32,000 bases of DNA from Schaalia odontolytica (GTDB lineage Bacteria; Actinomycetota; Actinomycetes; Actinomycetales; Actinomycetaceae). The DNA lies in assembly GCF_005696695.1 (NCBI RefSeq), contig NZ_CP040006.1, forward strand, positions 390,001 through 422,000, given 5' to 3'. The position numbers and the translations under genes are program-made. Below are positions 6,836 to 24,687 of this stretch, in pieces. Each line of letters opens with the position of its first letter. Position 1 is the stretch's first letter. Below the pieces are notes generated by a model. It was not told the DNA's origin, made no database searches, and saw nothing but the letters and a program-made list of their open reading frames with translations.

Positions 6836-6973
6836 CAGGTCTCCTCGCGCTGCGCGCGTACGTGTTCGATGCGACTGCACCCAGTGTAGCTGAGTGGACT
6901 TCCAAGTTTTAACCGACGGTTAGCCTCAGTGCATTACACTGGGCACTGTTGTTTCCCGACGATCGGAGGTTTC
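6836..6973. promoter_or_regulatory. Divergent intergenic region between eccC and the eccD-like gene, with candidate -10 elements and a 9-bp inverted repeat
   Basis: CCCAGTGTA (6880-6888) and TACACTGGG (6935-6943) form a 9-bp inverted repeat. This places TACACT (a TAnnnT -10-like hexamer) upstream of each divergent gene on its own strand. TGAGTGGACT at 6891-6900 recurs in the esx/eccD intergenic region. Confidence 0.3.
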
Positions 6974-8410: not shown

Positions 8411-9870
8411 TGGCTGATACTACGAAGACTCCTTTCGCCCATGCGCCCGCTTCGCGGCTCGTCGGCGCGTATCTCATCGACCTGCTGGTCCTCGGGGTCC
8501 TGCTTGGTGTGACGTGGTACGTGCACTTCACGGCGTGGACGATCGGAATGATCACTGCCGAGGCCGTGGTTGCCTCCGCGCTCATGCTCGGCGCGTCCGG
8601 CCGGACGCCGGGCATGGCCCTCATGCGCGTGTGCATGATCCGCGACGAGGAAGACGCGCAGACTCCGTCGCTCGGCGCGGCGCTGGGCTACACGGCCCTC
8701 GCTGTGCTCCTCCAGGTCACCGTCGTGGGCCTGCTCGCCTCGTATGCGATGGTCCACGATGGGCGTACGTGGCTGAGCGGCCCCACCCGTACCCGCTTTG
8801 TCGACCTGCGCAAGCATGCGGCGCTCGCGGCGGGCCCCGGTGAGGTCGAGCGCGCCGAGCGTCCGCACATGGCCCCCAGTGGTTTTGAGAGCGTGCATGA
8901 GGGGGTTGACCAGTGGAGCGCTCCCGCTGCGCCGTTGACGCCCGTGCCCTCCTCGGCGCCGGACTATTCCGCGCCCGGTCAGCGTGCGAACGACCCCTTT
9001 GGGACGGGTTACAGCGCTCCTGCGGTCCCGGCGGTCTCCCCGCTGCCTGCGGCCCCCGCCATGCCGGCGGCGCCCAGTGCGCCAGCCGTGCCCAGCACGC
9101 CTGCTGCGCCCGGACTGTCCGCTGCGCCTTCGGCTCCCGCTGTGCCCGCCGCGCGCGAGTCCAACGAGTTCGAGGCGCTCCTCGCGCCGCCACAGGGAAC
9201 GCCGGACACCCACCGCCCCGCGCCCCAGCGCCCCGCGACACCGTCCGTGCCCGCGGTACCTCCGGTGCCCAGCGTGCCCGCCTCGTCGACGCCTGCCGCG
9301 CCCGCGCAGGTTCCCGCCCAGGCCAGCTGGGGAGCTCCCGCTCAGCAGGTGCCCCCTCAGCCCGGCCAGGCCTCGTACAACGCAGGAGGGCAGTATGCGG
9401 CCCCCGCATCGGGTGTGCCCGGACCTCCGCCGAGCCGCCGCGACGTGCAGGCTGCGCAGCGCTCCGGCACCTCCCAGTGGGGTGGGGCCGGCCAGTCCCA
9501 GTGGGGTGCACCCGCGACGCCGCCGCGCACGCAGCTCCTGTGGCTCATCTTCGACTCCGGGCAGCGCGAGCTCATCGACATGCCGGTGACTCTTGGGCGT
9601 GCACCCGCAGCCGTCGAGGGCTCGCGTGCGGTCGTCGTGCCCGACGCGACGATGTCGCTCTCGCGCACGCACATGCGCCTGGGGCCCACGGCCACCGGTG
9701 CCTGGATCGAAGACTCCTTCTCCGCGAACGGCACGCAGATTCGTACGCCCGATGGCCGCGTCATGGAACTGACGGGCGGACAGGCGGTCGAGGTGCCTGC
9801 CGGTACCGAGGTCATCATGGGAGACCGGAGGGCCACGATCGTCTACGCCGACGCTGACTCGGTGCACTGA
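8410..9870 (+). CDS. Membrane protein with an N-terminal RDD domain, a ~220-aa Pro/Ala-rich linker and a C-terminal FHA domain
   Basis: The ATG at 8410 overlaps the TAA of the preceding gene (TAATG). RDD-like region: SRLVGAYLIDLLVLGVLLGV...GRTPGMALMRVCMIRDEED, with 3 hydrophobic segments. FHA signature: VTLGRAP...LSRTHMRL...SANGTQIRTPDG (GR, SRxH and NGT motifs). The track ORF start at 8263 lies inside the upstream gene and was rejected. Confidence 0.85.
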   Translation: MADTTKTPFAHAPASRLVGAYLIDLLVLGVLLGVTWYVHFTAWTIGMITAEAVVASALMLGASGRTPGMALMRVCMIRDEEDAQTPSLGAALGYTALAVLLQVTVVGLLASYAMVHDGRTWLSGPTRTRFVDLRKHAALAAGPGEVERAERPHMAPSGFESVHEGVDQWSAPAAPLTPVPSSAPDYSAPGQRANDPFGTGYSAPAVPAVSPLPAAPAMPAAPSAPAVPSTPAAPGLSAAPSAPAVPAARESNEFEALLAPPQGTPDTHRPAPQRPATPSVPAVPPVPSVPASSTPAAPAQVPAQASWGAPAQQVPPQPGQASYNAGGQYAAPASGVPGPPPSRRDVQAAQRSGTSQWGGAGQSQWGAPATPPRTQLLWLIFDSGQRELIDMPVTLGRAPAAVEGSRAVVVPDATMSLSRTHMRLGPTATGAWIEDSFSANGTQIRTPDGRVMELTGGQAVEVPAGTEVIMGDRRATIVYADADSVH

Positions 9871-10408: not shown

Positions 10409-10714
10409 TCACAGGCCGCCGAGCAGCTGGGAGAACGAGTTCTTGGTCTCGGACTCGTTGTCTGTCATCGACGAATCGGTGGCGCGCAGGTTATCAGCGA
10501 GATCCTGAAGAGCCTGGTTAACCTTTCTTACGTTCTCATCCCACTGATCCATCAGCGACTGGAACTGCACCGACGCCTCGCCCTGCCAGGAGCTGCCGAT
10601 GGTCGACAGGTCGCCCTTAAGACGCGTGGTGTGGCCGTCGATGTCGTTCTTGGTGGACTCAACCGCTGCGAAGCCCTCCTTTAGGGCACCTTCTGCGGCC
10701 CTCTGGTCTGCCAT
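10409..10714 (-). CDS. esxA: WXG100 family protein (ESAT-6/EsxA-like)
   Basis: I prefer the start at the ATG at 10714 (MADQRAAEGALKEGF...), with GGAGG 5 nt upstream. 101 aa. The WXG motif is WQG (IGSSWQGEASVQFQSLMDQW). The A versus B assignment is tentative. Confidence 0.85.
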   Translation of the reverse strand: MADQRAAEGALKEGFAAVESTKNDIDGHTTRLKGDLSTIGSSWQGEASVQFQSLMDQWDENVRKVNQALQDLADNLRATDSSMTDNESETKNSFSQLLGGL

Positions 10715-10909
10715 GTGAACCTCCATTTGTATGAGTGGACTCTCTCGCCGGGATGCGTGAGAGCATGGGGACACATGAATACTAACCATGTTTTCATCGT
10801 TTTTTTCGATGTTACGGAAAAATCATGACAAAACCTGACCGAGAATCTAGACTTACAGGGTTGTGTCGTGTAGCCAAAAACCCCATCACGCGGCATTCGG
10901 GAGGACCCA

Positions 10910-12271
10910 ATGGCATCGAAAACATCACGAGGAGTGGCGCTGATTCCGCTCACGATTACGTACGGCGTTGACCGTAGTGACGTGACGCTTCCGCAGTCGA
11001 TCCCCCTGGTGGAGCTGCTCCCTGGAATGGTTGAAACGGTGGGCGCTTTCACTGATCAGCCAACGAATGACGGCTTCGCGGTGCGTACGGCCTCGGGTCG
11101 TCTGCTCGATCAATCCAAGTCCCTGTCCGCCCAGGGAGTGCGCGCCGGCGCGGCGCTCACGCTCGAGCCTCTGGGTGAGGGCGCTGCCGATATGGTCTAT
11201 GACGACCTCACCGAAGCGGTCGGTCAAGTCGTCGAAAGGGTGTCCACTCCTTGGACACGTGAGGACGCTCGCACTCTTGCTGCACTCTCTGCGGCGGGCC
11301 TCGTCTTCGTCGCAGCCCTCCTCCTGGCCACCACTCCTCCGGACGCCCTCACCGCCCTCGATTCTCATTCCGTCACGAGGTACAACGTCATTGCCGGCGC
11401 AATCGGTATCGTCGCGGCGCTGCTCGTGACTGCGACGTCCGCCGTGATGACCCGGAAGTACCCGCAGGCGAGCGGCATCGCGCTGGCACACACCGTCCCC
11501 TTCCTGACGGCCGCATCGGCTCTGCGCCTGAGCCAGAGCCACTGGGACACCGCCGGCTGGGGGTGGACCGGCCTCGGCCTCCTGATCGGCTCCCTCGCCG
11601 TTCTCGCGCTGCCCAAGCGGTACAGAATCTCTATCGCGGCCCCTCTCGTCGTCGGTACGGTTTTGGCCGCGACCGGCCTCCTGGTTCGGCTCGGTCAGCT
11701 CTCTCAGGCGGGTATCTCCGCAATCCTCTTCGCCCTCGTGATTGTGCTTCTCCAGGTCGCGCCCTGGATCGCGCTGGCCCACATCCCCGTGCGCATCCTG
11801 GATGCGGACACGACTGAGCAGATTCCCGCGAAGGGCATCACCGACCAGGTCAGCACCTCCTTCGTGTTCGTCGTCGCTCTGCGCGCCGGCGGGGCAATCG
11901 CCGCTCTCTTCCTGGCCGTCGCCCTGATGACGGCACCCGAAACGCGGTCGATCTCCCTGCCGCTGACCCTCATCGTGCTCGGTGCGGTCTCCCTCGTTCT
12001 CCAGACGCGTTCCATCCGCGCTCGTGTTGAGGTGCTTCTCGGTGCTCTCACCGGCCTGATCGTGATTCTCGTGGCCACTGTGCTCGGCGCCTACGCGGAC
12101 CCGAGGACCATGCCGTGGCTGACGCTGTCGGCAATCGCGACCGCCCTCGTCCTCGTCATCACGAACGTCGTCGGGCCTCGTGCACGCCCGCACCTGACGC
12201 GCATCGCCGACACGATCTCGGTGCTGTCGCTGTTTGTTCTGCTTCCCCTGGCCGTCTACCTGTGGAGCTGA
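10910..12271 (+). CDS. eccD: Type VII secretion integral membrane protein EccD
   Basis: 453 aa. The N-terminal ubiquitin-like domain has the typical pattern (LTITYGVDRSDVTLPQSIPLVELLPGMVETVG...SGRLLDQSKSLSAQGVRAGAALTLEPL). About 11 TM helices follow. GGGAGG lies upstream of the ATG. Confidence 0.9.
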   Translation: MASKTSRGVALIPLTITYGVDRSDVTLPQSIPLVELLPGMVETVGAFTDQPTNDGFAVRTASGRLLDQSKSLSAQGVRAGAALTLEPLGEGAADMVYDDLTEAVGQVVERVSTPWTREDARTLAALSAAGLVFVAALLLATTPPDALTALDSHSVTRYNVIAGAIGIVAALLVTATSAVMTRKYPQASGIALAHTVPFLTAASALRLSQSHWDTAGWGWTGLGLLIGSLAVLALPKRYRISIAAPLVVGTVLAATGLLVRLGQLSQAGISAILFALVIVLLQVAPWIALAHIPVRILDADTTEQIPAKGITDQVSTSFVFVVALRAGGAIAALFLAVALMTAPETRSISLPLTLIVLGAVSLVLQTRSIRARVEVLLGALTGLIVILVATVLGAYADPRTMPWLTLSAIATALVLVITNVVGPRARPHLTRIADTISVLSLFVLLPLAVYLWS

Positions 12272-12274
12272 GCC

Positions 12275-13729
12275 ATGCCGTCGAGTAAAGACATCCTCGA
12301 AGCCCAGCGTTTTAATCGAAACCGCCTGATCACGGCCTTCACCTCCGGCACGCCCGACGGGCGCGAGGTCGACACGCCCTCGCCCGTGCGCCCCCTTATT
12401 TTCGGGCTCGTGGTCGCCGTTATTCTCAGCGTGGTGGGAATCGGCATGCGCGTTTTTGCGCCGAACCCGAAACTCGGGGAGGCGCAGTATCAGCTGGTTG
12501 ACGTCAAGGGGACGGGTGCCCGCTATTTCTGGGCAAACGGCGTCCTCCATCCCATCGCGAACGTGACCACCGCTAGGCTCCTCAGCCCCGAATCGAAGCT
12601 GACGACCATCCAGGCATCAGCGTCGTCACTCGAGAACATTCCGCGCGGCGCCCAGATCGGCCTGCCCGACGTCCCCGATGACGTGCCAGTACCCGACATG
12701 CTGAGTAAGCAGTGGCTCTCCTGCGACATGGAGTCCGGATACCACACGTGGATCGCCAAGGAACTGCCTGTGGCGAATTTTCCGGTGAAGCAGGCGACAT
12801 CCGCGCTCGTTCAGGCGACCGGCAGCGGAGACAAGTACTTCGTCGATCGGGAAAAAGGCAAGAAGTACTACATCGACTCCAGCGTAAGCCGCCTGGGTGA
12901 CTGGGCGCTGTCCTTCCAGAACCTCACCAGCTACCCGATCACCGTCGAACCCGAGTGGCTCGACCTCTTCCCTTCGGGCACGCCTCTGCGCCCCTGGAGC
13001 TACAACGACATTGAGAACGCGGGGCAGCCGGCCAAGAACCTGCCCGGTGACTTGAAGAACGAGGGCATCACCATCGGAATGGTCCTCGACCAGGTCGACT
13101 CCACCGGTCAGGTCAAAAACTCCTACCTGGTGATCGACGACTCGAATCTGGTGGTCTTCAACTCGACTGCGGCGCGCCTGTATCAGGACGCCCCGCCCTC
13201 GAAGAAGTTCCCCACCGAGATGTTCAAGTACGTCGAGCCCGTCCAGGCCGTCTTCGTCGGTGACGATTGGCCTGCCGTCGAGGACTTTGAATCGCCCGAG
13301 TGGTTCAACGAGAGCCGCGACGCGGCCAGCCGGACGGTCCTGTGCGCCGCGATGGACACCACTGATCGCGCTAATCCGACGTTCGACCTGGTCACCATGC
13401 CTGAAAAGCGTGCGATCGAAGCGTCCTACGATGCGGAATCTCTACAGTCCCCGAAGGGGCCGTCGACGACGCGCAACGTCACTGTCGCGGGCGGATCTGG
13501 CGCCCTCCTTGCCCTCACGTCCGGCGGTGGTGGCGAGGCCGCGTCCTACGTCTTCATCTCCGATATGGGCTTCCGCCACTCCCTCGGCGATGTCCCCTCC
13601 GTCTCCATGAATGCCCTCGGCTGGAGCGCCTCTGAGGCCGCGTCGGTCCCGCGCGCGTGGGGCGAGCTCATCCCGCCGGGTTCCGAGATGTCGCCGAAGG
13701 CCGCCGCCACCTCAGTGGGGATCAAGTGA
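12275..13729 (+). CDS. eccB: Type VII secretion protein EccB
   Basis: 484 aa. N-terminus KDILEAQRFNRNRLITAF, then a single TM (IFGLVVAVILSVVGIGM), then a large extracytoplasmic domain containing IPRGAQIGLPDVPDDVP. These match the EccB pattern. The gene starts 3 nt after the eccD stop. Confidence 0.9.
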   Translation: MPSSKDILEAQRFNRNRLITAFTSGTPDGREVDTPSPVRPLIFGLVVAVILSVVGIGMRVFAPNPKLGEAQYQLVDVKGTGARYFWANGVLHPIANVTTARLLSPESKLTTIQASASSLENIPRGAQIGLPDVPDDVPVPDMLSKQWLSCDMESGYHTWIAKELPVANFPVKQATSALVQATGSGDKYFVDREKGKKYYIDSSVSRLGDWALSFQNLTSYPITVEPEWLDLFPSGTPLRPWSYNDIENAGQPAKNLPGDLKNEGITIGMVLDQVDSTGQVKNSYLVIDDSNLVVFNSTAARLYQDAPPSKKFPTEMFKYVEPVQAVFVGDDWPAVEDFESPEWFNESRDAASRTVLCAAMDTTDRANPTFDLVTMPEKRAIEASYDAESLQSPKGPSTTRNVTVAGGSGALLALTSGGGGEAASYVFISDMGFRHSLGDVPSVSMNALGWSASEAASVPRAWGELIPPGSEMSPKAAATSVGIK

Positions 13730-15144
13730 GCGCCCGCCGCACGCGTTCCCGCTTCCTGGGCCGAGGCCTCGTCGGGGCCTCGCTGATCGCTGGACTCGCG
13801 CTCGTGCCGATTGCCGCACCGGTTGTCTCGCCTGATGACTCCGGTGCGTTCGGTCCTGGCGTCGCTCACGCTGACCCGGTGCCGACCCCGAGCGTGCGTC
13901 CGACTCCGACTGCGACTCCCTCGTCGTCGGCGACGACGCCCGCGAGCGAGTCCGAGGGCGGCGAATGCTCGCAAAACTCGCCCTCGTACATCAAGCAAGC
14001 ACCCGCCATCTTCGACGCCGTCGGGGTACGTCGAGCCTGGGAGGTCTCGCGAGGCCGTGGCGTCACGGTCGCGATCGTTGACTCGGGCGTCGCCGCTGGC
14101 AATCAGCACTTCCAGGGCCCGGACGGGTCCGTCGTGCTGCCCGGCATTGACCTGAGCGGTGAAAACACCGACGGGCGCGTCGACGTCGGCGAACACGGCA
14201 CGGCCATCGCCGGTGCGATCGCCGCGCAGGAGCTGCCTAAGGAGATGGGATCCGGCCTCGTCGGCGTCGCCCCCGAGGCGAAGATCCTCCCGGTGCGCGT
14301 TGACACCGGGCTTCAGGACAATCGCCCGCACAAGGAAGGCGAAGAGACCTTCATGTCGAAGGTGGGCCGCGGGATCCAGTGGGCCGCCGACCATGGCGCG
14401 CAGATCATCGTCGTCGCACAGTCTGCTCCCGAGGGGGACCCCCAGCTGGAGGCAGCCATTAACGCCGTGCGCGGCCGGGCCCTCGTCGTGGCATCGACCG
14501 GCAACGTGTACCAGGGACAGGAAGCGAATCAGGTCGTCTACCCGGCCGCCTACCCGGGTGTGCTCGGCGTGACCGCCTCGAATGCTGACGGATCGGCCTC
14601 GGACCAGCAGGTGCACGGCGCGCACGTCAAGCTCGCTGTTCCCGCCGGCGTCATCCTCACGACCTGGTTCGATCAGGCCGACTGCCTCGTCGGCGGATAC
14701 GAGGGGGACCAGCCCCTGCCGTCCTCGTCCTACGCGACCGCATACGCGGGCGGCTTCGCGGCCCTCGTGGCCTCGGCCTACCCCGATGAGGGGCCCGACA
14801 TGTGGAAATACCGGCTCGAAGTGACCGCCCTGCGCGGCACGCCCGATCAACGCACCGACGCCCTCGGCTGGGGTGTCGTCGCTCCCTTCGACGCCCTCAC
14901 CTTCACCGATATCGGCACCAGGTTCGGGCCGGAACACCCTAACGCCGCGGAACATCCCGCTCCCGCCCGACCGGCCGTGGCCTCGGCGGACTTGACCTCG
15001 CGCGATAACAACCTGACGATCCGCGCCTACATCGTGTCCGCGATCGCAGTCCTCGGGGCCTCGCTGATCGGAGGTCTCGTGATCCTCTCCCACCTGCGCG
15101 GTAGGCCCGCCGTGGTCGAAGACTCAGAAGAGGACTTGTCGTGA
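13726..15144 (+). CDS. mycP: Mycosin (membrane-anchored subtilisin-like S8 protease) MycP
   Basis: I prefer the start at the GTG at 13726, which overlaps the eccB stop (GTGA). There is a signal peptide (VSARRTRSRFLGRGLVGASLIAGLALVPIAAP). The catalytic motifs are VAIVDSGV (Asp), EHGTAIAG (His) and SSSYATAYAGG (Ser). The C-terminal TM anchor is AYIVSAIAVLGASLIGGLVILSHL. Confidence 0.9.
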   Translation: MSARRTRSRFLGRGLVGASLIAGLALVPIAAPVVSPDDSGAFGPGVAHADPVPTPSVRPTPTATPSSSATTPASESEGGECSQNSPSYIKQAPAIFDAVGVRRAWEVSRGRGVTVAIVDSGVAAGNQHFQGPDGSVVLPGIDLSGENTDGRVDVGEHGTAIAGAIAAQELPKEMGSGLVGVAPEAKILPVRVDTGLQDNRPHKEGEETFMSKVGRGIQWAADHGAQIIVVAQSAPEGDPQLEAAINAVRGRALVVASTGNVYQGQEANQVVYPAAYPGVLGVTASNADGSASDQQVHGAHVKLAVPAGVILTTWFDQADCLVGGYEGDQPLPSSSYATAYAGGFAALVASAYPDEGPDMWKYRLEVTALRGTPDQRTDALGWGVVAPFDALTFTDIGTRFGPEHPNAAEHPAPARPAVASADLTSRDNNLTIRAYIVSAIAVLGASLIGGLVILSHLRGRPAVVEDSEEDLS

Positions 15145-16328
15145 CCACCTGGGTGTCGCGGCGCTGGGCAAAGAGCGTGGGCGTCCTCGCCAGCGCACTC
15201 GCGCTCAGCCTCGGCGCGAGCCTCACCCCCGTTGCGCCGGCTTACGCCGCCGACCCGCCGGTGACCGCTGACAAGCAGGACTACTACAAGTACTACAAGC
15301 TCAAGTCCATCCACGATCAGGGAATCACAGGCAAGGGCGTCACCATCGCGGTCCTGGACGGCGCCGTGAACCCGAACATTCCCGAACTCAGGGGCGCGAA
15401 CATTCAGGATCGGATGCCCTGCGTCAAGGACTCGGCCCCAGAGAATGCGGCACACGGCACCACGGTCGCGCAGATCCTGGTCTCGCCCGAGTTTGGTGTT
15501 GCGCCGGACGCGACGCTCTACACCTATACACTCCCCCTTCATGGTGATGCGTCGAACTGCACGCTCTCCGGCTGGACGGGGGAAGCAGAAAACGACACGC
15601 CTCTCCTCATCGAGCAAGCGATCAACGACGGCGCCAACATCATCACCATCTCCAGTAACTTTGGCGATAATTCCATCGACCTTCGATGGGCCATGGCCAG
15701 GGCCATGGCCGCGGGAGTCATCGTCGTGGCCGCGATGGGCAACGAGACTACCGAGGACCCCGATGATGCGCTGGCTATCTGGACGGGAATCTGCGGCATC
15801 GGAGCAACGCTGCATGATGGCAGCCTGACGGAGTACACGAACTGGGGCAACGGGTTGTTGACGACCGCCCTGGGAACAGTCGTGACGCGTGACACCTCGA
15901 CCGGTCGTGTCGAGGAAGCTGACGGAACGTCCTTTGCGACCCCGATTATCGCCGGCTTTTTGGCGCTCGGCTGGCAGCACTTCGACGAGGACGTGAGCGC
16001 AGGTCAGATGCTTCAAGCGCTGGCTGCAACGGGGAGAAGCGGAAACGAGTGGAACAAGTTCACCGGCTACGGCCCCGCCGACCCGATCGCGTTCCTCCGG
16101 TCAGACCCGTCGCAGTATACGGACGAGAATCCGTGCGTTCCGCAGGACAACAGGTCTTTGCCAACGAGGGATGATGTCATCGACTACATGGACGGCGTCG
16201 TCAACCCCATTCTGATTCGTAATGATGATGTCTACGTCTACCGCGGCGTGAACGAAGAGGCTGCCCTCAGCCGCGAACACGGCTACCCGACACACATCGG
16301 CACCAGCCCCCGGTACCACAGTCAGTGA
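15141..16328 (+). CDS. Secreted S8 subtilase, mycosin-adjacent paralogue 1, no C-terminal TM anchor
   Basis: The GTG at 15141 overlaps the mycP stop (GTGA). The signal peptide ends ...PVAPAYA. Triad motifs are IAVLDGAV, AAHGTTVAQ and DGTSFATP. The C-terminal tail is NDDVYVYRGVNEEAALSREHGYPTHIGTSPRYHSQ. Confidence 0.85.
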   Translation: MTTWVSRRWAKSVGVLASALALSLGASLTPVAPAYAADPPVTADKQDYYKYYKLKSIHDQGITGKGVTIAVLDGAVNPNIPELRGANIQDRMPCVKDSAPENAAHGTTVAQILVSPEFGVAPDATLYTYTLPLHGDASNCTLSGWTGEAENDTPLLIEQAINDGANIITISSNFGDNSIDLRWAMARAMAAGVIVVAAMGNETTEDPDDALAIWTGICGIGATLHDGSLTEYTNWGNGLLTTALGTVVTRDTSTGRVEEADGTSFATPIIAGFLALGWQHFDEDVSAGQMLQALAATGRSGNEWNKFTGYGPADPIAFLRSDPSQYTDENPCVPQDNRSLPTRDDVIDYMDGVVNPILIRNDDVYVYRGVNEEAALSREHGYPTHIGTSPRYHSQ

Positions 16329-16389
16329 CGGGCCTCGGCTTTCCTGCGAGCCCGAGTGCCTGAGCGCCCGAACGAAAGGAACAGACACA

Positions 16390-17607
16390 ATGATGCGGTC
16401 GGCCGGTCGGTCCCGAGGCCTGCGTGCCCTCTCCGTTCTGGCATCGGCCTGTGCCCTGGCCCTGACGGCCGTGCTCTCGCCCGTCGCCCCTGCTGCCCCT
16501 GCGACAGCGGTGGATCGAGAGCTTACGGCAGCTGACCAGGCCTACTATTCGCGCTACAACCTGGAGGCGCTGCGCGCCCAGGGGTACACGGGCGAGGGCG
16601 TGATTATCGCGGTCATCGACGGGCGTATTGACACGTCCATTCCCGAGCTGCAGGGTGCGGACATCGTCGACAAGAGTACGTGCGACGTAGGAGCCGACGC
16701 CGAGCAGGACGAGCATGCGACGTTCATTGCGCAGCTCCTGGTCGCCCCGGCCTTCGGCGTTGCGCCGAAGGCCACCATCTATAACTATCGGAATGCCCTA
16801 AGCGTTAATCAGGGTAGCGACGACTGCACAACGGTATGGAATCTCCCGACGGGACGAGCCCGTACGGAATACCTCATCGAACAGGCGATCAACGACGGTG
16901 CTGACATTATCGCGATCTCCTCCAGCTACGCGGATTCTCACAATTCATCGATGCGCTGGGCTATTTCTCGCGCGACTGTGACGGGTGTTCCAATCGTTGC
17001 ATCCGTCGGTAACGACAGCGAGTACAACCCCGATGACGAACTGGGTATGTGGGGAGGAGTCATCGGTGTCGCTGCGCTCGAGCAGGATGGCACCGTTGCC
17101 GACTACTCGAACTATGGAGACGGGGTAACACTCGCGGCGATTGGTGAAATCAATGGGCGTTCGTCAATCGACGGTAAGCTCTACAAGACAAGCGGAACAT
17201 CGTACGCTTCGCCCATGGTTGCTGGTTTCCTGGCCCTCGCGTGGCAGCGTTTTGGTGGTGGTGAGGTGAGCGTGTACCAGGTTCTTCAGGCCGTGCTGGC
17301 GACCGCGTGGGGGACGAATGGGCAGTGGAACGAGCGCACGGGTTACGGTGAGATCAACCCGGCGGCTTTGCTGGCCGCCGATCCGTCGCAGTACTCGGAG
17401 GAGAATCCGCTGCTGGAGAAGGGCAGTCGCTTTGCCTTCCATGAGGATGACGTCTACGACTACTACTACGGGCTGGCGAATCCGCGCGAGGTCCTGAACG
17501 ACGACTGGTACGTGTACCGTGGTGTGGATGAGGAGGGTGCTCTGTCCGAAGGGCAGGGGTACGAGGTTCACCTGGGGACGAGCCCGCTCTATCACAACCA
17601 GGGATGA
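16390..17607 (+). CDS. Secreted S8 subtilase, paralogue 2, no C-terminal TM anchor
   Basis: Signal peptide MMRSAGRSRGLRALSVLASACALALTAVLSPVAPAAPATA. Motifs are IAVIDGRI, DEHATFIAQ and SGTSYASP. The tail is NDDWYVYRGVDEEGALSEGQGYEVHLGTSPLYHNQG. AAGGAA lies upstream. Confidence 0.85.
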   Translation: MMRSAGRSRGLRALSVLASACALALTAVLSPVAPAAPATAVDRELTAADQAYYSRYNLEALRAQGYTGEGVIIAVIDGRIDTSIPELQGADIVDKSTCDVGADAEQDEHATFIAQLLVAPAFGVAPKATIYNYRNALSVNQGSDDCTTVWNLPTGRARTEYLIEQAINDGADIIAISSSYADSHNSSMRWAISRATVTGVPIVASVGNDSEYNPDDELGMWGGVIGVAALEQDGTVADYSNYGDGVTLAAIGEINGRSSIDGKLYKTSGTSYASPMVAGFLALAWQRFGGGEVSVYQVLQAVLATAWGTNGQWNERTGYGEINPAALLAADPSQYSEENPLLEKGSRFAFHEDDVYDYYYGLANPREVLNDDWYVYRGVDEEGALSEGQGYEVHLGTSPLYHNQG

Positions 17608-17673
17608 GCGGGCCGTGAGCCGCGACGCCCTCGCGAATGTTGAAACGCCTCGATGAAAGGAATAGACAAGACG

Positions 17674-18879
17674 ATGCGATCGATTGGTCGATCCCGAGGC
17701 CTGCGTGCCCTCTCCGTTATGGCCTCGGCCTGCGCGCTGGCCCTGACGGCCGTGCTCTCGCCCGTCGCTCCCGCTGCCCCCGCAGAGGCGGTGGATCGCA
17801 AGGTGACAGCGGCGGATGAGGCGTACTATTCGCGCTACAACCTTGCGTCCTTGCATGCGCAGGGGAAGAGGGGGGATGGAGTCATCATCGCGCTCATTGA
17901 TGGTCGCGTCGATACGTCGATTCCGGAGTTGCAAGGGGCTGATATTCAAGACAAGACCCCGTGTCAGGTCACGCCCGATGCGGAGTCGAACGATCATGCG
18001 ACATTTCTCGCTCAGCTTCTGGTCGCCCCGGACTTCGGAGTCGCTCCCGGTGCGACACTCTACAGCTACGCCCAGGCGGGTTCGACGAGAGAAGCGGGCG
18101 GAGACTGCAACCTAGGGGCGCGTTCAACAGCCTATGCAGATCAATCCGTGCTGATTGAACAGGCCTTGAATGACGGCGTGGACATCATCTCGATCTCTTC
18201 CAACTATGCGTCCAGGGACAGCGAATCATTGAAATGGGCAGTTGCACGCGCTGCCGTCGACGGCGTGCCAATTGTTGGTTCGATGGGTAATGACGGAGAG
18301 CGTAATCGCACGGATCGCGTGGGGGCCTGGGGTTCGGTTGTTGGTGTTGGGGCACTTGAAACTGATGGGCGCTATGCGGACTACTCAAACTACGGTGATG
18401 GGGTCTCCATCGCCGCAGTGGGAGAGATGATTGCGCGTCAGGCCAGCACCAATAAAATCGTGACAACAGCGGGTACTTCGAACTCCGCACCTTTGGTTGC
18501 GGGAGTGCTAGCCCTGGCGTGGTCCGACTTTGATGACGGAGTGACGGGGTATCAGATTCTGCAGGCGCTGGTTGCGACCGCGAGCGGGTCGGGTGGCAAA
18601 TGGAACGATCGGACCGGTTATGGCGAGGTTGATCCAGCGGCCCTGTTGGCGTCTGATCCGTCGCGGTATCCAGACGAGAACCCCTTCGAAGAGAAGCAGG
18701 GTGATTCCGTCGTGACTCCGGATGATATCGATGATTACGACGATGGGCTCGTCAACCCGAGCTCCGTTTATAACGACGACACGTATGTGTACCGGGGCCT
18801 CGATGAGCAGGTGGTGACTTCGGGCGCGTCCGGTTACCCGGCTCACCTTGGTACGAGCCCCCGCTACCACGCGCAGTGA
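17674..18879 (+). CDS. Secreted S8 subtilase, paralogue 3, no C-terminal TM anchor
   Basis: Track ORF 17653..18879. I trimmed the start to the ATG at 17674 (MRSIGRSRGLRAL...) by alignment with paralogue 2 and the upstream GAAAGGAA. Motifs are IALIDGRV, NDHATFLAQ and AGTSNSAP. The tail is NDDTYVYRGLDEQVVTSGASGYPAHLGTSPRYHAQ. Confidence 0.85.
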   Translation: MRSIGRSRGLRALSVMASACALALTAVLSPVAPAAPAEAVDRKVTAADEAYYSRYNLASLHAQGKRGDGVIIALIDGRVDTSIPELQGADIQDKTPCQVTPDAESNDHATFLAQLLVAPDFGVAPGATLYSYAQAGSTREAGGDCNLGARSTAYADQSVLIEQALNDGVDIISISSNYASRDSESLKWAVARAAVDGVPIVGSMGNDGERNRTDRVGAWGSVVGVGALETDGRYADYSNYGDGVSIAAVGEMIARQASTNKIVTTAGTSNSAPLVAGVLALAWSDFDDGVTGYQILQALVATASGSGGKWNDRTGYGEVDPAALLASDPSRYPDENPFEEKQGDSVVTPDDIDDYDDGLVNPSSVYNDDTYVYRGLDEQVVTSGASGYPAHLGTSPRYHAQ

Positions 18880-19013: not shown

Positions 19014-19409
19014 ATGGTAGAGACGATGGGGAGCACCCCCGAAGAAGTAAGGCAGACTATCCGGGCTCAGATGGAAGCCGCTGAAAAGCGTGCCGAGAAT
19101 GCCCGTGAACTCGTCGAGATTCTCAAGACAGCGAAGACGCGTGGCGTCGACGCTCAGGGCGACGTTGAGGTCGAAATCGACTCGGACGGTCGACTCGTGA
19201 AGCTGTCGATCGATGATGACGCGCTCCAGGGAAGTGCGCGTGAACTCGAGGACTCGATCATGGAGGCCTACGCCGACGCCGGTCGCAACATGCGTGACTA
19301 CGTGCGCATGCAGACCACCCAGCGGTTCGGCGAGGACGGTGGCTCGCTCGGCGGCTACCTCGAGACTATTTCCTCGAACCTTGGTTCCCTCGGAGCGGGT
19401 CAGCGATGA
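19014..19409 (+). CDS. YbaB/EbfC-fold protein (EspL-like ESX-associated protein)
   Basis: 131 aa. It has an N-terminal helix (EEVRQTIRAQMEAAEKRAENARELVEILKTAKTRG), then GDVEVEIDSDGRLVKLSIDDDAL....LEDSIMEAYADA. This is the YbaB-like pattern. AGGA lies upstream. Confidence 0.65.
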   Translation: MVETMGSTPEEVRQTIRAQMEAAEKRAENARELVEILKTAKTRGVDAQGDVEVEIDSDGRLVKLSIDDDALQGSARELEDSIMEAYADAGRNMRDYVRMQTTQRFGEDGGSLGGYLETISSNLGSLGAGQR

Positions 19410-20740
19410 GCGCGGATCTTGGCGTCAATACAGAAGTAATCCGTGATCATGCGACCACGGTGAGTGACTGTGCGTCGACCCTCGACGAGAGCGTGGGCGT
19501 CGCCAACTCGACGAAGGGCCAGGTCAACGGCAACGCCTTCGGCCTGATCTGTTCCTTCTTCGTTTCCCCGGTCAATGAGCAGATCACGAACCTCACGAAG
19601 ATGATCTCGGACTGCTCCGCAGCCGAGAAGCGTCTTGTCAACTGCCTGCTCCAGTGGGCGCAGGAGATGGACGATCTTGAGCAAGACATCGTTGGGGATC
19701 TGCAGAAAATCCAAGGCGCCGTGGGCACATACACTAAGCCTATTGGCAACGGCGGCGACGGCGGAAACGGCGGTGCCGGTGGCGCTGGCGGTGCCGGTGG
19801 TGCCGGTGGCGCTGGTGGAGCTGGCGGTGCCGGTGGAGCTGGCGGTGCCGGTGGAGCTGGCGGATATGGCGGCGGCGGAGGTGGCGGCGGCTTCGGCGGC
19901 GGAGGCGGCTACGGTGGTGGCGGCGGCTTCGGCGGCGGAGGCGGCACCGGCGGTGGTGGCGGCTTCGGTGGTGGCGGCGGCTACGGTGGTGGCGGCGGCC
20001 TGGGCGGCCTCAGCGGACAGTCCACAATGCCCTCCCTCTCACACAACCCCGGCCTCGGTGATGACTCCGCAAAGGACGGTAAGGACGGGCACGACGGTAA
20101 GGACGGGCAGGACGGCAAGGATGGTAAGGAAGGCAAGGACGGCCAGTCCGGTAACTCCTTCGACAGCCTCCTCGGCGGCCACGACAAGCTCAACGCCGAC
20201 GACGACGAACTGCGTCGCTTCCTCGAGAAGCAGCGCGACGACGAAAACACCGATCTTGCCGAGTTCTACGAGCGCCAGAAGGAAGACCAGAACGAGGCGC
20301 TCGCGCGCTACGCTGAGGCGCACCCCGGTGAGGACATCTCCGAGGTCAAGAGCCTCATCGAGTCCAACCAGCAGGAGCAGCAGGACGCGATGACGGACTT
20401 CCTGTCGCGCCAGCGCACCGAAGAAGAAACCCAGATCCGCCAGTACGTGAAGGACAACCCGCAGGCAACGTCCCGCGAGTTCGACGCCTTCATGTCGAAG
20501 CAGCGCAACGACCAGCAGGCCAGCTACCGCAGCTTCGTCGAGGAGCAGGAGAAGGCTCAGTCCTCCCGTATCGAAGAGTTCTCGAAGGCTCACCCCGATA
20601 CGAAGACGGACGACGTGCGTTCGCTGTTCGACCGGCAGGATGACCACGGCGATAAGGACATCGAAACGTTCCTGTATCGTCAGCGCCAGGATGAAGAACG
20701 CACGCTGCGTCGCTTCCTGTTTGAAGGAGTTCAGAAGTGA
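19406..20740 (+). CDS. Mosaic putative T7SS substrate: EspC/DUF2580-like N-terminal domain, poly-Gly tract, collagen-like GXY run and acidic helical repeats
   Basis: The ATG overlaps the upstream stop (ATGA). The N-terminus MSADLGVNTEVIRDHATTVSDCASTLDES...GNAFGLICSFFVSPV resembles the 'type VII secretion target' AYGLLCxF motif. Next come GGAGGAGGAGG... and GGGGG[YF] repeats. Then KDGKDGHDGKDGQDGKDGKEGKDGQSG. Then about 7 repeats of the type FLEKQRDDENTDLAEF or FLSRQRTEEETQIRQY. Confidence 0.7.
   Translation: MSADLGVNTEVIRDHATTVSDCASTLDESVGVANSTKGQVNGNAFGLICSFFVSPVNEQITNLTKMISDCSAAEKRLVNCLLQWAQEMDDLEQDIVGDLQKIQGAVGTYTKPIGNGGDGGNGGAGGAGGAGGAGGAGGAGGAGGAGGAGGAGGYGGGGGGGGFGGGGGYGGGGGFGGGGGTGGGGGFGGGGGYGGGGGLGGLSGQSTMPSLSHNPGLGDDSAKDGKDGHDGKDGQDGKDGKEGKDGQSGNSFDSLLGGHDKLNADDDELRRFLEKQRDDENTDLAEFYERQKEDQNEALARYAEAHPGEDISEVKSLIESNQQEQQDAMTDFLSRQRTEEETQIRQYVKDNPQATSREFDAFMSKQRNDQQASYRSFVEEQEKAQSSRIEEFSKAHPDTKTDDVRSLFDRQDDHGDKDIETFLYRQRQDEERTLRRFLFEGVQK
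19745..20016 (+). repeat. GGN-codon microsatellite-like tract (9-bp and about 18-bp sub-periods) encoding the poly-Gly region
   Basis: The DNA reads GGCGGTGCCGGTGGCGCTGGCGGTGCCGGTGGTGCCGGTGGCGCTGGTGGAGCTGGCGGTGCCGGTGGAGCT..., followed by GGCGGCGGAGGCGGCTACGGTGGTGGCGGCGGCTTC-type units. Confidence 0.8.
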
Positions 20741-21957
20741 GCGTCGAATCCCCCGAATTCACACCGAGTATCGACAACACCACCCCGACCGAGGGCCTGG
20801 GTATCGTCGACGAGCTGTACAACGTCGCCCAGGACCTGCGCGCCGGCGAGGTGAACAACCTCGTCGATTCAGCGAAGGCAATTTACGAGGAAGCAGCCGG
20901 GCTCGCCGTTGACCCTATCGGTGGTCTCGTCGGTATGGGCGTCGAGTGGATCTTGCAGCACATCGATCCCCTCAAGACCTGGGTGAACCAGCTGACCGGC
21001 GACTCGGCTCAGGTGTACGGCATGAGCTCCAGCTGGGACTCCATCTCGAGCTCCCTCGCCTCCGTTGCTGAAGAGCTGCAGTCCACCGCACAGGCCGCGA
21101 TGTCCGGCATGCACGGCGAAGCAGTGCGCGCGTACCTGGAGCGCCAGGCCGTCGTCACCAGTGCGATCGACGGCGTCTCTGCTGCGTCTGGTGCCTTCGG
21201 CGAGGCGCTCACGAAGGTGGCAGACTCCGTCGACAGCATCCATGACGCCGTCGTGGGCGCCATCGGCGATATCGTTGGCAGCTGTGTTTCCGCAGCGGCC
21301 GAGGTAATCTTCACCGCTGGTCTTGCAGCTCCCGCCGCCGAAGCGCAGGTTGCCAGTAAGGTCGCCAAGTGGGTCGGACTCATCGGCCCTGTCCTGGATG
21401 TCCTCATGGAAGCCGTTCAGGCCATCATGGCGATCTACGCCGTCATGACCTCGGTCGGCGAGAACCTGACCCGCGGCGTCGAGCACATCGGCGAGCAGTG
21501 CCAGGCCCCCGGCGGCGGCTGCTGCGGCGAGGGACACAGCAAGGGCGGCGAGGGCTACGAGCTGCGCGACGGAAGAAACGTGTACGTCGACGGCGATAAC
21601 AACGGCACCATCGTGAACGGTGACGTCAATATCGAGGAAGACAATCACACGGAGATCAACCCCAGTATCGAGCTCAGCCCCGAAATCAATATCGAGCACG
21701 AGCACGAAGAGCACCACCACCACGGTAAGCACGACGGGGGCGACGACTCTTCGCACGACAAATCGCACGGTCGCAAGGCACCGCACGAGCAGCAGCACAA
21801 CGGCGCTAGTGAGCGCGGAACTCGCCCGCGCAAACAGCACGGAGGCAACCACGACAGCGGAAACGATGGGAATCACCATCGTCACAAGGGTGGCAGCAGC
21901 CACGATGGCAGTGGACACCGCCCTCGTCGCCCCCACCATCATCGCCGGCCTCACTGA
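20737..21957 (+). CDS. Putative large T7SS substrate: WXG100-like/T7SS-signal-type N-terminal domain, hydrophobic helices and a Cys- and His-rich C-terminal tail
   Basis: The GTG at 20737 overlaps the upstream stop (GTGA), with GAAGGAG 7 nt upstream. The N-terminus is VDPIGGLVGMGVEWILQHIDPLKTWVNQLTGDSAQVYGMSSSWDSISSSL...MHGEAVRAYLERQ. This matches the G-x-G-W-L-x-x-H-x-x-P-L...L-x-G-D...W...G-x-A-x-x-A-Y pattern of large actinobacterial WXG-like substrates. The hydrophobic stretch is WVGLIGPVLDVLMEAVQAIMAIYAVMTSVG. The tail has 22 His in the last ~86 aa (HEHEEHHHHGKH...RPHHHRRPH). Confidence 0.7.
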   Translation: MSVESPEFTPSIDNTTPTEGLGIVDELYNVAQDLRAGEVNNLVDSAKAIYEEAAGLAVDPIGGLVGMGVEWILQHIDPLKTWVNQLTGDSAQVYGMSSSWDSISSSLASVAEELQSTAQAAMSGMHGEAVRAYLERQAVVTSAIDGVSAASGAFGEALTKVADSVDSIHDAVVGAIGDIVGSCVSAAAEVIFTAGLAAPAAEAQVASKVAKWVGLIGPVLDVLMEAVQAIMAIYAVMTSVGENLTRGVEHIGEQCQAPGGGCCGEGHSKGGEGYELRDGRNVYVDGDNNGTIVNGDVNIEEDNHTEINPSIELSPEINIEHEHEEHHHHGKHDGGDDSSHDKSHGRKAPHEQQHNGASERGTRPRKQHGGNHDSGNDGNHHRHKGGSSHDGSGHRPRRPHHHRRPH

Positions 21958-22081: not shown

Positions 22082-22119
22082 AGGAGGGCCCCGCACAGAT
22101 CACTGTGTGGGGCCCTCCT
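22082..22119. terminator. Bidirectional hairpin between the convergent T7SS cargo operon and trkA
   Basis: AGGAGGGCCCCGCACA, then gatcac, then TGTGTGGGGCCCTCCT. This is a 16-bp stem with one G-U pair. There is no U-tract. Confidence 0.55.
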
Positions 22120-22132: not shown

Positions 22133-22810
22133 CTACGGCCTATTCGCGAAGTACTCCAGCAGATGCGAGTCGCCCGACACGATGATCTCGTCGTCAGCAT
22201 TAATGCGCGTTGACGAGTCCGCGTATTCGAAGCGCTGCTTGGGACGGCGGATTGCCAGCACGTTCACGCCGTAGCGGCCGCGCAGGTCGAGTTCCTCGAG
22301 GGAGAAGCCGCGCACCTCCTGGGGCGGGCGCAACTTCATGATGGAGAAGCCATCCTTCTCCATCTCGATGTAGTCGACCATGCGCCCACCCACCAGGTGC
22401 GCTGTACGCTTGCCTGCGTCCAGGTCTGGGTAGACGACATGGTGGGCACCCACGCGGCGGAGGATGCGGCCATGCTGAGAAGACGTCGCCTTCACCCAGA
22501 TCGAAGAAATACCCATGTCAACCAGGTTTGCGGTGATGAGCACCGCCGCCTCCAGCGAGGAACCCACGCCGACAACGGCACTACGGAACTCCCGCGCCCC
22601 GAGCTGCTCGAGCGCATCCTTGGACGTCGCATCCGCCTCGACGAGCGGGAATCGACCCGCGAAAGCCTGCACGCGGGCGGGGTTCTTTTCGACGGCCAGG
22701 ATCTCGTAGCCCAGCTGGTCCTGCGTCACCGCGACGGCGGAGCCGAAACGGCCCAGCCCGATGACGAGCGTTCCCGACTGGAGTTCCTTTGACTCGCGTT
22801 CATCTGCCAT
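22133..22810 (-). CDS. trkA: Potassium uptake protein TrkA/KtrA (RCK, NAD-binding)
   Basis: Rossmann motif LVIGLGRFGSAVA, followed by an RCK_C-like C-terminus (FSLEELDLRGRYGVNVLAIRR...DDEIIVSGD). I prefer the start at the ATG at 22810 (MADERESK) over the TTG at 22840; the choice is uncertain. Confidence 0.9.
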   Translation of the reverse strand: MADERESKELQSGTLVIGLGRFGSAVAVTQDQLGYEILAVEKNPARVQAFAGRFPLVEADATSKDALEQLGAREFRSAVVGVGSSLEAAVLITANLVDMGISSIWVKATSSQHGRILRRVGAHHVVYPDLDAGKRTAHLVGGRMVDYIEMEKDGFSIMKLRPPQEVRGFSLEELDLRGRYGVNVLAIRRPKQRFEYADSSTRINADDEIIVSGDSHLLEYFANRP

Positions 22811-23170
22811 GCCCCCATTCTTCCCTGCGTGCGCCCCCAACGCGAACGCTGCGGCCGTGAGCGTGGTTTAGTGAGTCGACGTGGATGCGTTGGTGAGCAT
22901 GATGGTGCCTGCGAACAGCTCAGGGGCGAATGATCTGTGGCGCGAGGATTGTGGCGTGAGGATGTTGCTGTGGTGCAAGGGGATGGCGTTCAGCCTAGTT
23001 CAATGGGGCTGGCCAGGTTCGTTGCGGTAGCGGTGTCGGTATCTGGTCGGTGCGCGTGAAACACGCGTGAAACATCGACTGGGATTCGCATATCGGGGCG
23101 AGAGAACCAGTCAAAGAGAGATAGCTTCGTGCCGCGCTCGGTTCGCGGTGGCAGTGATGTCGGCTCGCGC

Positions 23171-23580: not shown

Positions 23581-24639
23581 TCAGTTTCCCTTCTTGGTTC
23601 GGATGGCTACCAGAACCTGGGCGACGACCTCGTCGATGACGCGAAGATCCGACCATCGGACACGAATGACTGCCCACCCGTCGCGTTCAAGGTCGCGCTG
23701 CCGACGCTGCTCGGCCTCAATGCTGTCGTGGACTTCATCGACCGTGTCCCCGTACTTGATGCGACCATCGAACTCGATAGCTATCTTCAGGTTGGGCAGC
23801 GCAATATCGATGAAGTACGTGTGGCCGGCTACGTGGACCTCTTCTTGAGTCGTTATTCCTTCGATCCCCGCGCGCAGCAAGGCAAGCAACACGAGGGCCT
23901 CGCCAGGAGACTCGCATCCAGCGTCGGCACGGTCAATGACCCATCGGGCTTGCTTGCGCCCGACGGTGTTGAGGGGAGTGTTAGCCAATGCCTCGTGGAA
24001 CTCTTTGCGTGCCTCCTCCTGGCGGACACGCGACTCATCCTGACGAAAACGGTCGAAGTGGCACGCGTGGGCCAACCCCGCGCAGGCGATGGGAAACCTG
24101 TGCTTGTCGGCCAACAGGCGGGCGCAGTCAACGACAACTCGCGCCGGTGTGGCGATCTGGAAGCCCAAGTAGTTGATTGAGGGAACTGGCGATCGGGGGC
24201 GAGAAACGGTCGTTGTCACTGCCGAAAAACGTTCATTCTTCTCAACTGTGATTGCTGGAAAATGAATCTGGCGTGGGCATTCTCGAGATGGCGCATACAG
24301 TGTGAGCTTCTCGATCTGGTCGTCGGTGGGGAGGTCGAGAAGGTAAGCGGCGACGCCGCCGCTGATGACGTAATTGGGATATCGCAGACTCAGAGCGCAT
24401 AACCGGGCAATGAAAACCGCTGTTTTGCGCTCCCGTGAGTGCAGTCCAATCAACTGTGCTGAAGGGATATAAATGCCGGTAAGGAGACGAATGAATTCTC
24501 CTTTCTGCACGCGCCTATGGATGCGTTCACTAGCTGCATGCGAGTCGGCAATGACTAGGGATGCACGGATGGATGCCACCCGGTCGCGCAGCAAAGCAGC
24601 ATCTTCGTTGTGCGCATGCGCGCCTCGTTGTTGGTCCAT
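23581..24639 (-). CDS. DUF559 (Vsr/restriction-endonuclease-like fold) protein with an AbiEi-like N-terminal region
   Basis: The C-terminus GHTYFIDIALPNLKIAIEFDGRIKYGD...EQRRQRDLERDGWAVIRVRWSDL matches the DUF559 pattern (xxEFDGxxH/Y...R...L...GWxVxRxxxxD). Start candidates are the ATG at 24639 and the TTG at 24675, neither with a good RBS. By eye the GC content is lower than in neighbouring genes. Confidence 0.7.
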   Translation of the reverse strand: MDQQRGAHAHNEDAALLRDRVASIRASLVIADSHAASERIHRRVQKGEFIRLLTGIYIPSAQLIGLHSRERKTAVFIARLCALSLRYPNYVISGGVAAYLLDLPTDDQIEKLTLYAPSRECPRQIHFPAITVEKNERFSAVTTTVSRPRSPVPSINYLGFQIATPARVVVDCARLLADKHRFPIACAGLAHACHFDRFRQDESRVRQEEARKEFHEALANTPLNTVGRKQARWVIDRADAGCESPGEALVLLALLRAGIEGITTQEEVHVAGHTYFIDIALPNLKIAIEFDGRIKYGDTVDEVHDSIEAEQRRQRDLERDGWAVIRVRWSDLRVIDEVVAQVLVAIRTKKGN

Positions 24640-24687
24640 GAGTCCAACTGTGTGACGACTGGAGTGCGCCTTCAAGCTCTCTGTGTG

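Follow-up and report, generated by a model that had tools for sequence, protein, structure and literature searches.

The 32,000-nucleotide stretch of the Schaalia odontolytica genome analysed here (contig NZ_CP040006.1, positions 390,001 to 422,000; called the window below, with all coordinates given as positions in it) contains a complete Esx locus, that is, the gene locus of a secretion system of type VII (T7SS), whose last three genes are the subject of this study. These three open reading frames (ORF1, ORF2 and ORF3) code for a small YbaB-fold protein, a protein that starts with an EspC-like hairpin and a helical protein with a His-rich tail, and we consider it reasonably probable that they constitute a T7SS substrate operon, composed of a chaperone and a co-exported pair with binding payloads. 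Over its left 8,125 base pairs (bp), the window matches contig LLVT01000001.1 from the draft genome of strain XH001 (GCA_001462375.1) with 100.000% identity; this strain is an Actinomyces (now Schaalia) odontolyticus and the host of the epibiont TM7x (PMC4742689). The features of the three-gene module and of its 3' flank are:

19014-19409, plus strand: ORF1, 131 amino acids, YbaB-fold protein, proposed cytosolic chaperone/adaptor of the ORF2/ORF3 pair (public name 'YbaB/EbfC family nucleoid-associated protein', WP_060566311.1)
19406-20740, plus strand: ORF2, 444 amino acids, EspC-like hairpin, Gly-rich linker and acidic C-domain
19406-19729, plus strand: ORF2 residues 1-108, EspC-family helical hairpin, proposed partner of the ORF3 carrier domain
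19730-20182, plus strand: ORF2 residues 109-259, hypervariable Gly-rich linker
20183-20737, plus strand: ORF2 residues 260-444, conserved acidic C-domain, duplicated hairpin, without family assignment
20737-21957, plus strand: ORF3, 406 amino acids, GTG start, helical carrier, tri-Cys motif and cationic tail
20737-21498, plus strand: ORF3 residues 1-254, elongated, predicted all-helical carrier (trafficking) domain
21499-21528, plus strand: ORF3 residues 255-264, tri-cysteine motif CQAPGGGCCG, where carrier and payload meet
21529-21954, plus strand: ORF3 residues 265-406, predicted disordered payload, with a 'GDNNGTIVNGDV' segment followed by a His-rich repeat tail (319-406) ending RPRRPHHHRRPH
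about 22082-22118, no strand: GC-rich inverted repeat in the gap that separates ORF3 from the convergent trkA, identified by reading the sequence
22133-22840, minus strand: trkA, convergent with ORF3

The chaining of the three genes by overlaps, as stated in the original prediction, was confirmed: ATGA at 19406-19409 joins ORF1 to ORF2 and GTGA at 20737-20740 joins ORF2 to ORF3, both being read in the sequence, and Shine-Dalgarno-like motifs are present 5' of ORF2 (GGAG) and ORF3 (AGGAG). All three ORFs are called as genes in the XH001 draft genome annotation, and the same gene order in related loci, the recurring 4-bp ORF2/ORF3 overlap and the profile matches confirm that they are real genes and not chance ORFs. 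We infer a fixed stoichiometry of the three products. Judged by its sequence, the inverted repeat is likely to be a bidirectional terminator and to mark the end of the operon, and no sigma-70-like promoter was found upstream of the module, by a scan that may not suit the host organism.

The YbaB-fold protein and conservation of the triad

In every sufficiently long Schaalia, Pauljensenia or Actinomyces locus that was fetched, we identified a YbaB-like gene, an extended ORF2 (363-567 amino acids in the oral Actinomycetaceae loci), an ORF3 homolog and a convergent trkA; the ORF1 homolog is kept at the same position in all orthologous loci and the 4-bp overlap of ORF2 and ORF3 recurs in nearly all of them. 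The module diverges fast, since identities amount to 44-71% for the YbaB-like protein, 39-73% for the N-terminal domain of ORF2 (ORF2-N) and 35-70% for that of ORF3 (ORF3-N) where TrkA is 95-100% identical, the module domains being overall 35-85% identical across those species. Triads in which the middle gene is a stand-alone EspC-like gene of 109-111 amino acids were found in loci L006 (directly after eccC), L007 and L025 (Microbacterium capsulatum). Because these distant loci keep a stand-alone middle gene, the ancestral state was probably a chaperone, a small partner and a carrier-payload protein, and the extension of the small EspC-like partner would be an innovation of the present clade.

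ORF1 matches the Pfam family YbaB_DNA_bd (PF02575) with 2.5e-10 and 40.8 bits (cutoff 25.5) over profile positions 1-83 of 91, and a profile of its orthologs retrieved, from the PDB, E. coli YbaB (1pug, 4e-7), Mycobacterium tuberculosis Rv3716c (5yrx, 6.5e-6) and H. influenzae YbaB (1j8b, 1e-5). Of the description 'YbaB/EspL-like', given to this protein from the sequence alone, the YbaB fold was therefore retained, and 'EspL-like' is better put as 'YbaB-fold, as in EspD/EspH/EspL': like these proteins, ORF1 combines a YbaB-like fold with linkage to a pair of an EspC-family protein and a large substrate in a T7SS locus. In mycobacteria, the YbaB-like EspD, EspH and EspL stabilise the EspC/EspA and EspF/EspE pairs (PMC6107294, PMC6109436, PMC6319747) and, by analogy, ORF1 would stay in the cytoplasm, where it would bind and stabilise ORF2 and ORF3.

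The public name of ORF1 points to a different explanation, in which it is a plain nucleoid-associated or regulatory YbaB protein, a fold with DNA-binding activity in E. coli and H. influenzae, and ORF2 and ORF3 are cytoplasmic proteins unrelated to export. However, ORF1 fails the housekeeping equivalog model TIGR00103 (30.1 bits, cutoff 49.45), always shares its operon, within T7SS loci, with a gene of the EspC family and evolves at the fast rate given above. Its sequence indicates a divergent paralog and not the housekeeping YbaB/EbfC protein, and we regard a purely nucleoid-associated role as highly improbable.

Domain architecture of ORF2 and ORF3

The second protein had been described as starting with an EspC/DUF2580-type domain (with the segment NAFGLICSFF, ORF2 residues 43-52), and profile searches agree with this assignment: residues 1-94 align with positions 1-93 of the 100 of T7SS_ESX_EspC (PF10824) at 22.3 bits, just below the gathering threshold of 23.5, and the orthologous N-domains score 30.6 (L007), 28.9 (L021), 26.1 (L005) and 23.4 bits (L012). 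In the AlphaFold2 (AF2) model this domain is formed by helices 2-40 and 44-107, with a predicted local distance difference test (pLDDT) score of about 70-75, and an invariant G-x-A-F-G-x-x-C-S motif lies at the turn of the hairpin. Residues 1-108 can be aligned with the middle genes that stand alone in the triads of L006 and L007; ORF2 itself, with 444 residues and two further regions, is not a stand-alone hairpin of about 100 residues, as are the versions in L006, L007 and L025.

The linker that follows is 70% Gly in residues 109-205 and is made up of (GGA/GGN)n stretches, G5[F/Y] repeats and nine charged G-K/H/Q-D triplets. It is Gly-X-Y compatible over 31 + 9 triplets, although the 31-triplet run is mostly poly-Gly-like, and charged Gly-X-Y runs are also present in orthologous linkers (24 triplets in L016 and 17 Gly-X-Y-compatible triplets in L012). 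AF2 predicts it as disordered (pLDDT <50, without secondary structure). The linker is encoded by DNA tandem repeats (19768-19863, 19868-20008 and 20072-20154), and among orthologs, the nearly identical L009 strain excluded, its length ranges from 82 to 277 amino acids and its identity from 26 to 33%. We also observed that short-read metagenome contigs carrying ORF3 (L030-L032 among the loci) almost all begin inside ORF2, 17 of the 19 contigs being 2-5 kilobases long; evidently, the Gly-rich tandem DNA repeats interrupt the assemblies, and these breaks probably explain the scarcity of full-length ORF2 homologs in protein databases.

The C-domain of ORF2 is predicted with higher scores (pLDDT 80-90) and is composed of four helices of about 40 residues (266-305, 312-350, 356-395 and 401-440) connected by the turns HPGED, NPQAT and HPDTK. 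It is a tandem duplication of a helical hairpin of about 89 amino acids: BLASTP of the first half against the second gave 3e-12, and hhalign gave 98.3% and 46.6 bits, against 0.5 +/- 1.8 for shuffled controls. This acidic domain (42% charged residues, net charge -18) is the best-conserved part of the module, with 66-85% identity across species, and is restricted to this clade, a search of 1.84 billion proteins giving only 5 representative clusters at E<1e-10 and a word-indexed homolog search only 2 proteins. In hhalign-type comparisons, its hairpins showed no detectable relationship with ORF2-N, EsxA or ORF3-N. A hemophore-related identity of ORF2 was considered and rejected (TIGR04529, 24.3 bits, cutoff 32; PF16525, 13.1 bits, cutoff 27.4; only 33 residues), the match being to a short motif, because the Y-x-x-x-N/H-P-x-A-T-x-x-E-F unit also occurs in unrelated repeat proteins, some of them helix-turn-helix proteins.

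The third protein had been called WXG-like and His-rich. The latter holds for its tail (residues 319-406), where 22 of the last 88 residues, or 25%, are His, whereas the former can be kept only in a broader sense: ORF3 matches WXG100_2 (PF25547; 17.0 bits, threshold 27) and WXG100 (PF06013; 14.6 bits, threshold 27.3) below threshold, but its homologs, in which the N-domain is joined to seven kinds of polymorphic-toxin domain, clearly mark it as a carrier of the T7SS type. In a profile search, the ORF3-N domain was found fused to TNT, Ntox15, SsdA_C deaminase, Gln_amidase, Tox-REase-2 and ADPrib_exo_Tox domains in relatives from Microbacterium, Leifsonia, Actinomyces oris and others, some with immunity genes downstream; the TNT domain of one of them, P0095, was confirmed at 2.8e-15, and WXG100_2 is matched by 14 of the 46 carrier relatives (best E-value 1.3e-5). 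Because homologs join the same domain to several toxin domains, ORF3-N can be assigned, on this homology, as a polymorphic-toxin carrier domain. AF2 predicts residues 1-254 as all-helical, with long helices at 90-121, 128-192 and 198-256 (pLDDT 60-75).

The surroundings of some of these relatives deserve a description of their own. The orphan carrier-toxins of Microbacterium (TNT, Ntox15) are followed by a 124-amino-acid gene (L001:6331-6705, L003:6394-6768) and then by presumed immunity genes; this gene might code for a downstream partner or chaperone that replaces the YbaB/EspC pair. No Pfam match and no link to the triad were found for the 124-amino-acid genes, nor for the genes 5' of the toxin in the A. 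oris locus L004 (MSKM01000039.1). In L004, SsdA_C deaminase toxin genes with an ORF3-type carrier alternate with Imm5 immunity genes, and a further ORF begins with a carrier-domain fragment, an array that looks, from its sequence, like a region of toxin/immunity cassette exchange.

At the end of the ORF3 carrier domain, C-x-x-P-x-G-G-C-C-G was found at residue 255 in 12/12 orthologs inspected; this tri-Cys motif is absent from the toxin-bearing relative P0095, and a 'GGDNNG' segment is present in most orthologs. Residues 257-406 are predicted to be disordered (no secondary structure, pLDDT about 30), and the orthologous tails are hypervariable (20-33% identity) and cationic, and most of them terminate with several basic residues in a row. 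Neither C-terminal part contains a toxin or enzyme domain detectable by Pfam, NCBIfam, PDB or fold searches, as had been predicted, and PDB sequence searches with ORF2, ORF3 and the ORF2-N and ORF3-N profiles returned only low-complexity or coiled-coil noise. The proposal that both functional ends are new can now be made more specific, since the end of ORF2 is a conserved duplicated-hairpin domain and that of ORF3 a hypervariable cationic tail predicted to be disordered.

The 22 His residues in 88 and the three conserved Cys residues could be taken to indicate a secreted Zn-, Ni- or Cu-binding protein, in which the tri-Cys motif and the 25% His tail capture metal for uptake or sequestration. 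However, the tail is His-rich in the S. odontolytica group only, being Lys/Pro-rich elsewhere and also Ser/Gly-rich, and metal binding cannot be the conserved function because the orthologous tails have few His residues. In addition, no metal transporter is linked to the module, trkA and trkH being potassium-uptake genes on the opposite strand. We give this explanation very little credence.

The properties of carrier and tail also suggest a toxin pair directed against bacteria or epibionts. The His/Lys-rich, cationic ORF3 tail would then be a peptide-like effector that acts on membranes or disrupts surfaces and is delivered by a polymorphic-toxin carrier, and the acidic head of the co-exported ORF2 would be its built-in neutraliser, replacing a separate immunity protein. 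The same carrier occurs in TNT, Ntox15, deaminase, ADP-ribosyltransferase and nuclease toxins, the tails are hypervariable, cationic and mostly basic-ended while the ORF2 head has a net charge of -18, and the Esx system of this species curbs epibiont growth by means of a disordered effector (PMC13622651). Nevertheless, there is no immunity gene 3' of ORF3 and no space for one (ORF3 stops at 21957 and is followed by the hairpin and by trkA at 22133), and the same layout is observed in the orthologous loci; apart from the Cys motif and the DNNG segment, neither a fold nor a motif is conserved in the tail, whose composition is completely different from one species to another, an unusual behaviour for a defined toxic activity, and the idea of acid/base pairing has no direct support. 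We consider a toxin pair unlikely.

Proposed export and role at the cell surface

No signal peptide or transmembrane segment was found in ORF1, ORF2 or ORF3, as is expected for T7SS cargo. In the substrate operon that we propose, the EspC-like hairpin of ORF2 and the helical N-domain of ORF3 would pack into one helical bundle, which EccC would recognise, exporting both proteins together; this is suggested by homology, by the conserved overlapping genes and by the AesA/AesB and Tap/EatA precedents. Outside the cell, ORF2 would contribute a spacer and an acidic four-helix head, and ORF3 the tri-Cys motif and the fast-evolving cationic tail. Residue composition, profile searches and predicted models indicate that the Gly-rich/Gly-X-Y spacer is flexible, the ORF3 tail disordered and both payloads non-enzymatic. 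Most likely, the payloads would bind the producer's envelope, each other (acidic head against cationic tail) or the surface of another cell. They are unlikely to be toxic, and this would account for the lack of an immunity gene. The cationic tail may hold the complex on the envelope of the producer, and such retention would also explain the absence of the proteins from culture supernatants. It seems most likely that the products act at the cell surface when the cell interacts with epibionts or competitors, since the module is found in the Esx locus of a model host of Saccharibacteria and evolves far faster than trkA.

Several observations weigh against this proposal. The Esx system of S. odontolytica F0309 limits Saccharibacteria via its single known effector pair, the co-dependent AesA/AesB, with a disordered payload (PMC13622651, a 2026 preprint), and the Esx-dependent secretome of this strain comprises EsxA, EsxB, AesA and AesB only (PMC13622651); clade-wide conservation suggests that F0309 has the module and, if so, its products went undetected in the culture supernatant under those conditions. 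ORF3-N scores below the Pfam thresholds, and neither a canonical WXG nor a conserved YxxxD/E export motif was found in the module: in sequence and predicted models, ORF3 has no WXG motif at the predicted helix turn and ORF2 has 'AFG' there instead. ORF2-N and ORF3-N showed no detectable similarity to the EsxA of the same locus (hhalign probabilities of 0.7% and 6.5%), and the AF2 model of ORF3 is of low confidence (mean pLDDT 46.9). Both fold searches with the predicted models were non-significant, Foldseek giving no match at E<=0.001 for ORF2, for which CFP-10/ESAT-6 and T. curvata EsxA:EsxB ranked at the top, or for ORF3, for which only generic BAR and chemoreceptor bundles were listed. The carrier relatives of Microbacterium (L001-L003) and A. 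oris (L004) have no adjoining YbaB or EspC genes, and the triad is therefore not obligatory for the carrier family. Finally, it is we who infer the export and the complex of ORF2 and ORF3.

The lack of detection in the F0309 supernatant (PMC13622651), together with the synteny of the module with the core genes in every locus, would also fit an accessory of the secretion apparatus: comparable to EspA/EspC/EspD in ESX-1, the pair would chiefly be required for, or would gate, the export of other substrates, or would form an envelope-spanning or surface structure of the machinery, and hardly any of it, or none, would be released. However, the ORF3-carrier relatives with toxin domains are plainly cargo, the module evolves much faster than expected of a machine part, and the export of EsxA/B and AesA/B in F0309 is explained without it (PMC13622651). 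We find an accessory function rather unlikely and retain the chaperone with a co-exported pair as the preferred interpretation.

A more speculative form of it, which we judge quite unlikely, is that ORF2 and ORF3 build a T7SS-exported, surface-retained fibre or brush, with the helical bundle as base, the Gly-rich/Gly-X-Y region as a polyglycine-II or collagen-like stalk, chains linked after export by disulfides through the tri-Cys motif, and the acidic head and cationic tail as exposed arms-race surfaces that control how Saccharibacteria epibionts (or phages) attach to the host. The GPCCG cystine knot of collagen III is a precedent for such disulfide cross-linking. If true, the pair would represent the first T7SS substrate of a collagen-like or disulfide-knotted kind and, next to AesA/AesB, a second anti-epibiont system.

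Systems of this kind are known, and the two large proteins were partly anticipated as candidate substrates: a structure-based screen pointed to two further candidates in the Esx cluster, OBNOAD_00337/00338, with no mention of the YbaB-like gene (PMC13622651). These probably correspond to ORF2/ORF3. The locus-tag numbering in the preprint is inconsistent; EsxA/EsxB are given there as OBNOAD_00329-00330 in the Results and as 00330/00331 in the Methods, which makes mapping to other genomes uncertain. The locus is unmentioned in the XH001/TM7x transcriptome and evolution papers. What is new is an EspC-family partner that has itself turned into cargo, with a conserved duplicated-hairpin domain of its own, and the apparent re-use of a toxin-carrier domain for a non-enzymatic, disordered payload with an invariant tri-Cys motif and a hypervariable cationic tail. 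The idea of a YbaB-like T7SS chaperone, so far described for mycobacterial ESX-1 only, would be extended to Actinomycetales and Micrococcales. As XH001 is the model host of TM7x, the module offers a conserved, fast-evolving second candidate pair in its Esx locus, amenable to existing genetics, and it bears on the role of T7SS substrates without enzyme domains.

The other genes of the Esx locus in the window are:

<1-1545, minus strand: aesB, truncated by the window edge
1568-2125, minus strand: aesA, from six-frame reading
2789-6880, minus strand: EccC (Pfam)
10409-10789, minus strand: EsxA-like WXG100 protein (Pfam)
10910-12271, plus strand: EccD (Pfam)
12275-13729, plus strand: EccB (Pfam)
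13657-18879, plus strand: four tandem S8 protease genes, directly 5' of the module (Pfam Peptidase_S8 in 4/4)

Reading of catalytic motifs and anchors in each S8 protein identified S8-1 as a membrane-anchored mycosin (TIGR03921, 214 bits), while S8-2, S8-3 and S8-4 have a signal peptide and no anchor. Among the latter three, which have a conserved C-terminal 'GTSP(R/L)YH' end in common, identity is 47-63%; the number of S8 copies ranges from 1 to 4 across related species, and XH001 has three further S8 genes just past aesB (L027:8262-12042 region). Between eccC and the esx genes, two long plus-strand ORFs (about 6929-8410 and 8263-9870) have no Pfam match and may code for T7SS membrane components that have escaped recognition; that the plus-strand genes of 6929-9870 are real is suggested by the gene calls in L027 and L005. 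Beyond the module, a DUF559/MTES_1575 restriction-endonuclease-like gene (23581-24675, minus strand) lies between trkA and trkH, and was apparently inserted in the lineage of S. odontolytica, because trkA and trkH are adjacent in L005.

Comparison with known systems

AesA and AesB share with ORF2 and ORF3 the species and the Esx locus, a pair of helical N-domains, a Gly-rich disordered payload and the lack of an enzyme domain. The full-length AesB ortholog of XH001 (565 amino acids, L027:6001-8283 region) has the FQG/FXG motif, a Gly-rich region and a 56-amino-acid charged end; its conserved C-terminal motif reads GYVNP, where the preprint prints GYNVP (PMC13622651). Identity of ORF2/ORF3 with AesA/AesB was ruled out, as there is no sequence similarity, the GYNVP/GYVNP end and the charged end of AesB are absent from ORF2 and ORF3, and the true aesA/aesB lie at 1-2125. 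Moreover, no YbaB gene accompanies AesA/AesB, and their secretion was shown by experiment, whereas ORF2/ORF3 are proposed substrates.

In Actinomycetota, T7SS toxins that have a helical N-domain are encoded next to small Tap partners and immunity proteins, and they form complexes (PMC13444075, Benedict et al. 2026). As in these Tap/EatA systems and in the Firmicutes LXG/Lap systems, the module has upstream small partner gene(s), an elongated helical N-terminal carrier and a variable C-terminus, and the carrier is shared among proteins with differing C-termini, as in T7SS polymorphic toxins of Actinomycetota. In contrast to Tap/EatA, it has neither a C-terminal toxin domain nor an immunity gene, one 'partner' has a YbaB fold and is not a helical hairpin, and the other is enlarged to 444 amino acids with a payload of its own.

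Bacterial collagen-like proteins combine a long, uninterrupted Gly-X-Y run with an adjacent trimerisation domain; the compatible runs found here are those of 31 and 9 triplets in the ORF2 linker. PE_PGRS/PPE-type T7SS substrates have Gly-rich or disordered C-terminal regions, and they resemble ORF2 and ORF3 in that a helical export domain precedes Gly-rich repeats of the GGA/GGN type and low-complexity tails, which vary through the expansion of repeats. However, no PE or PPE domain is present here (PPE matches were marginal), and the partner system is YbaB-like and not EspG. With housekeeping YbaB/EbfC proteins (1pug, 5yrx), ORF1 shares homology at the level of the fold, and it differs from them in its score below the equivalog cutoff, its T7SS operon setting and its rapid divergence.

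The nearest parallels of the whole triad are the ESX-1 sets EspD-EspC-EspA (espACD), EspH-EspF-EspE and EspL, which likewise combine a YbaB-fold protein with an EspC-family hairpin of about 100 amino acids and a larger helical co-substrate, encoded in or near a T7SS locus; there the YbaB-like member stabilises the pair, a role proposed here for ORF1 by analogy. To our knowledge, S. odontolytica has no mycomembrane, unlike mycobacteria. In addition, the gene order here is chaperone-partner-carrier, ORF3 has no Pfam match to an EspA/EspE-type family at E<=1, and ORF2, rather than being a stand-alone hairpin, has a linker and a second conserved domain.

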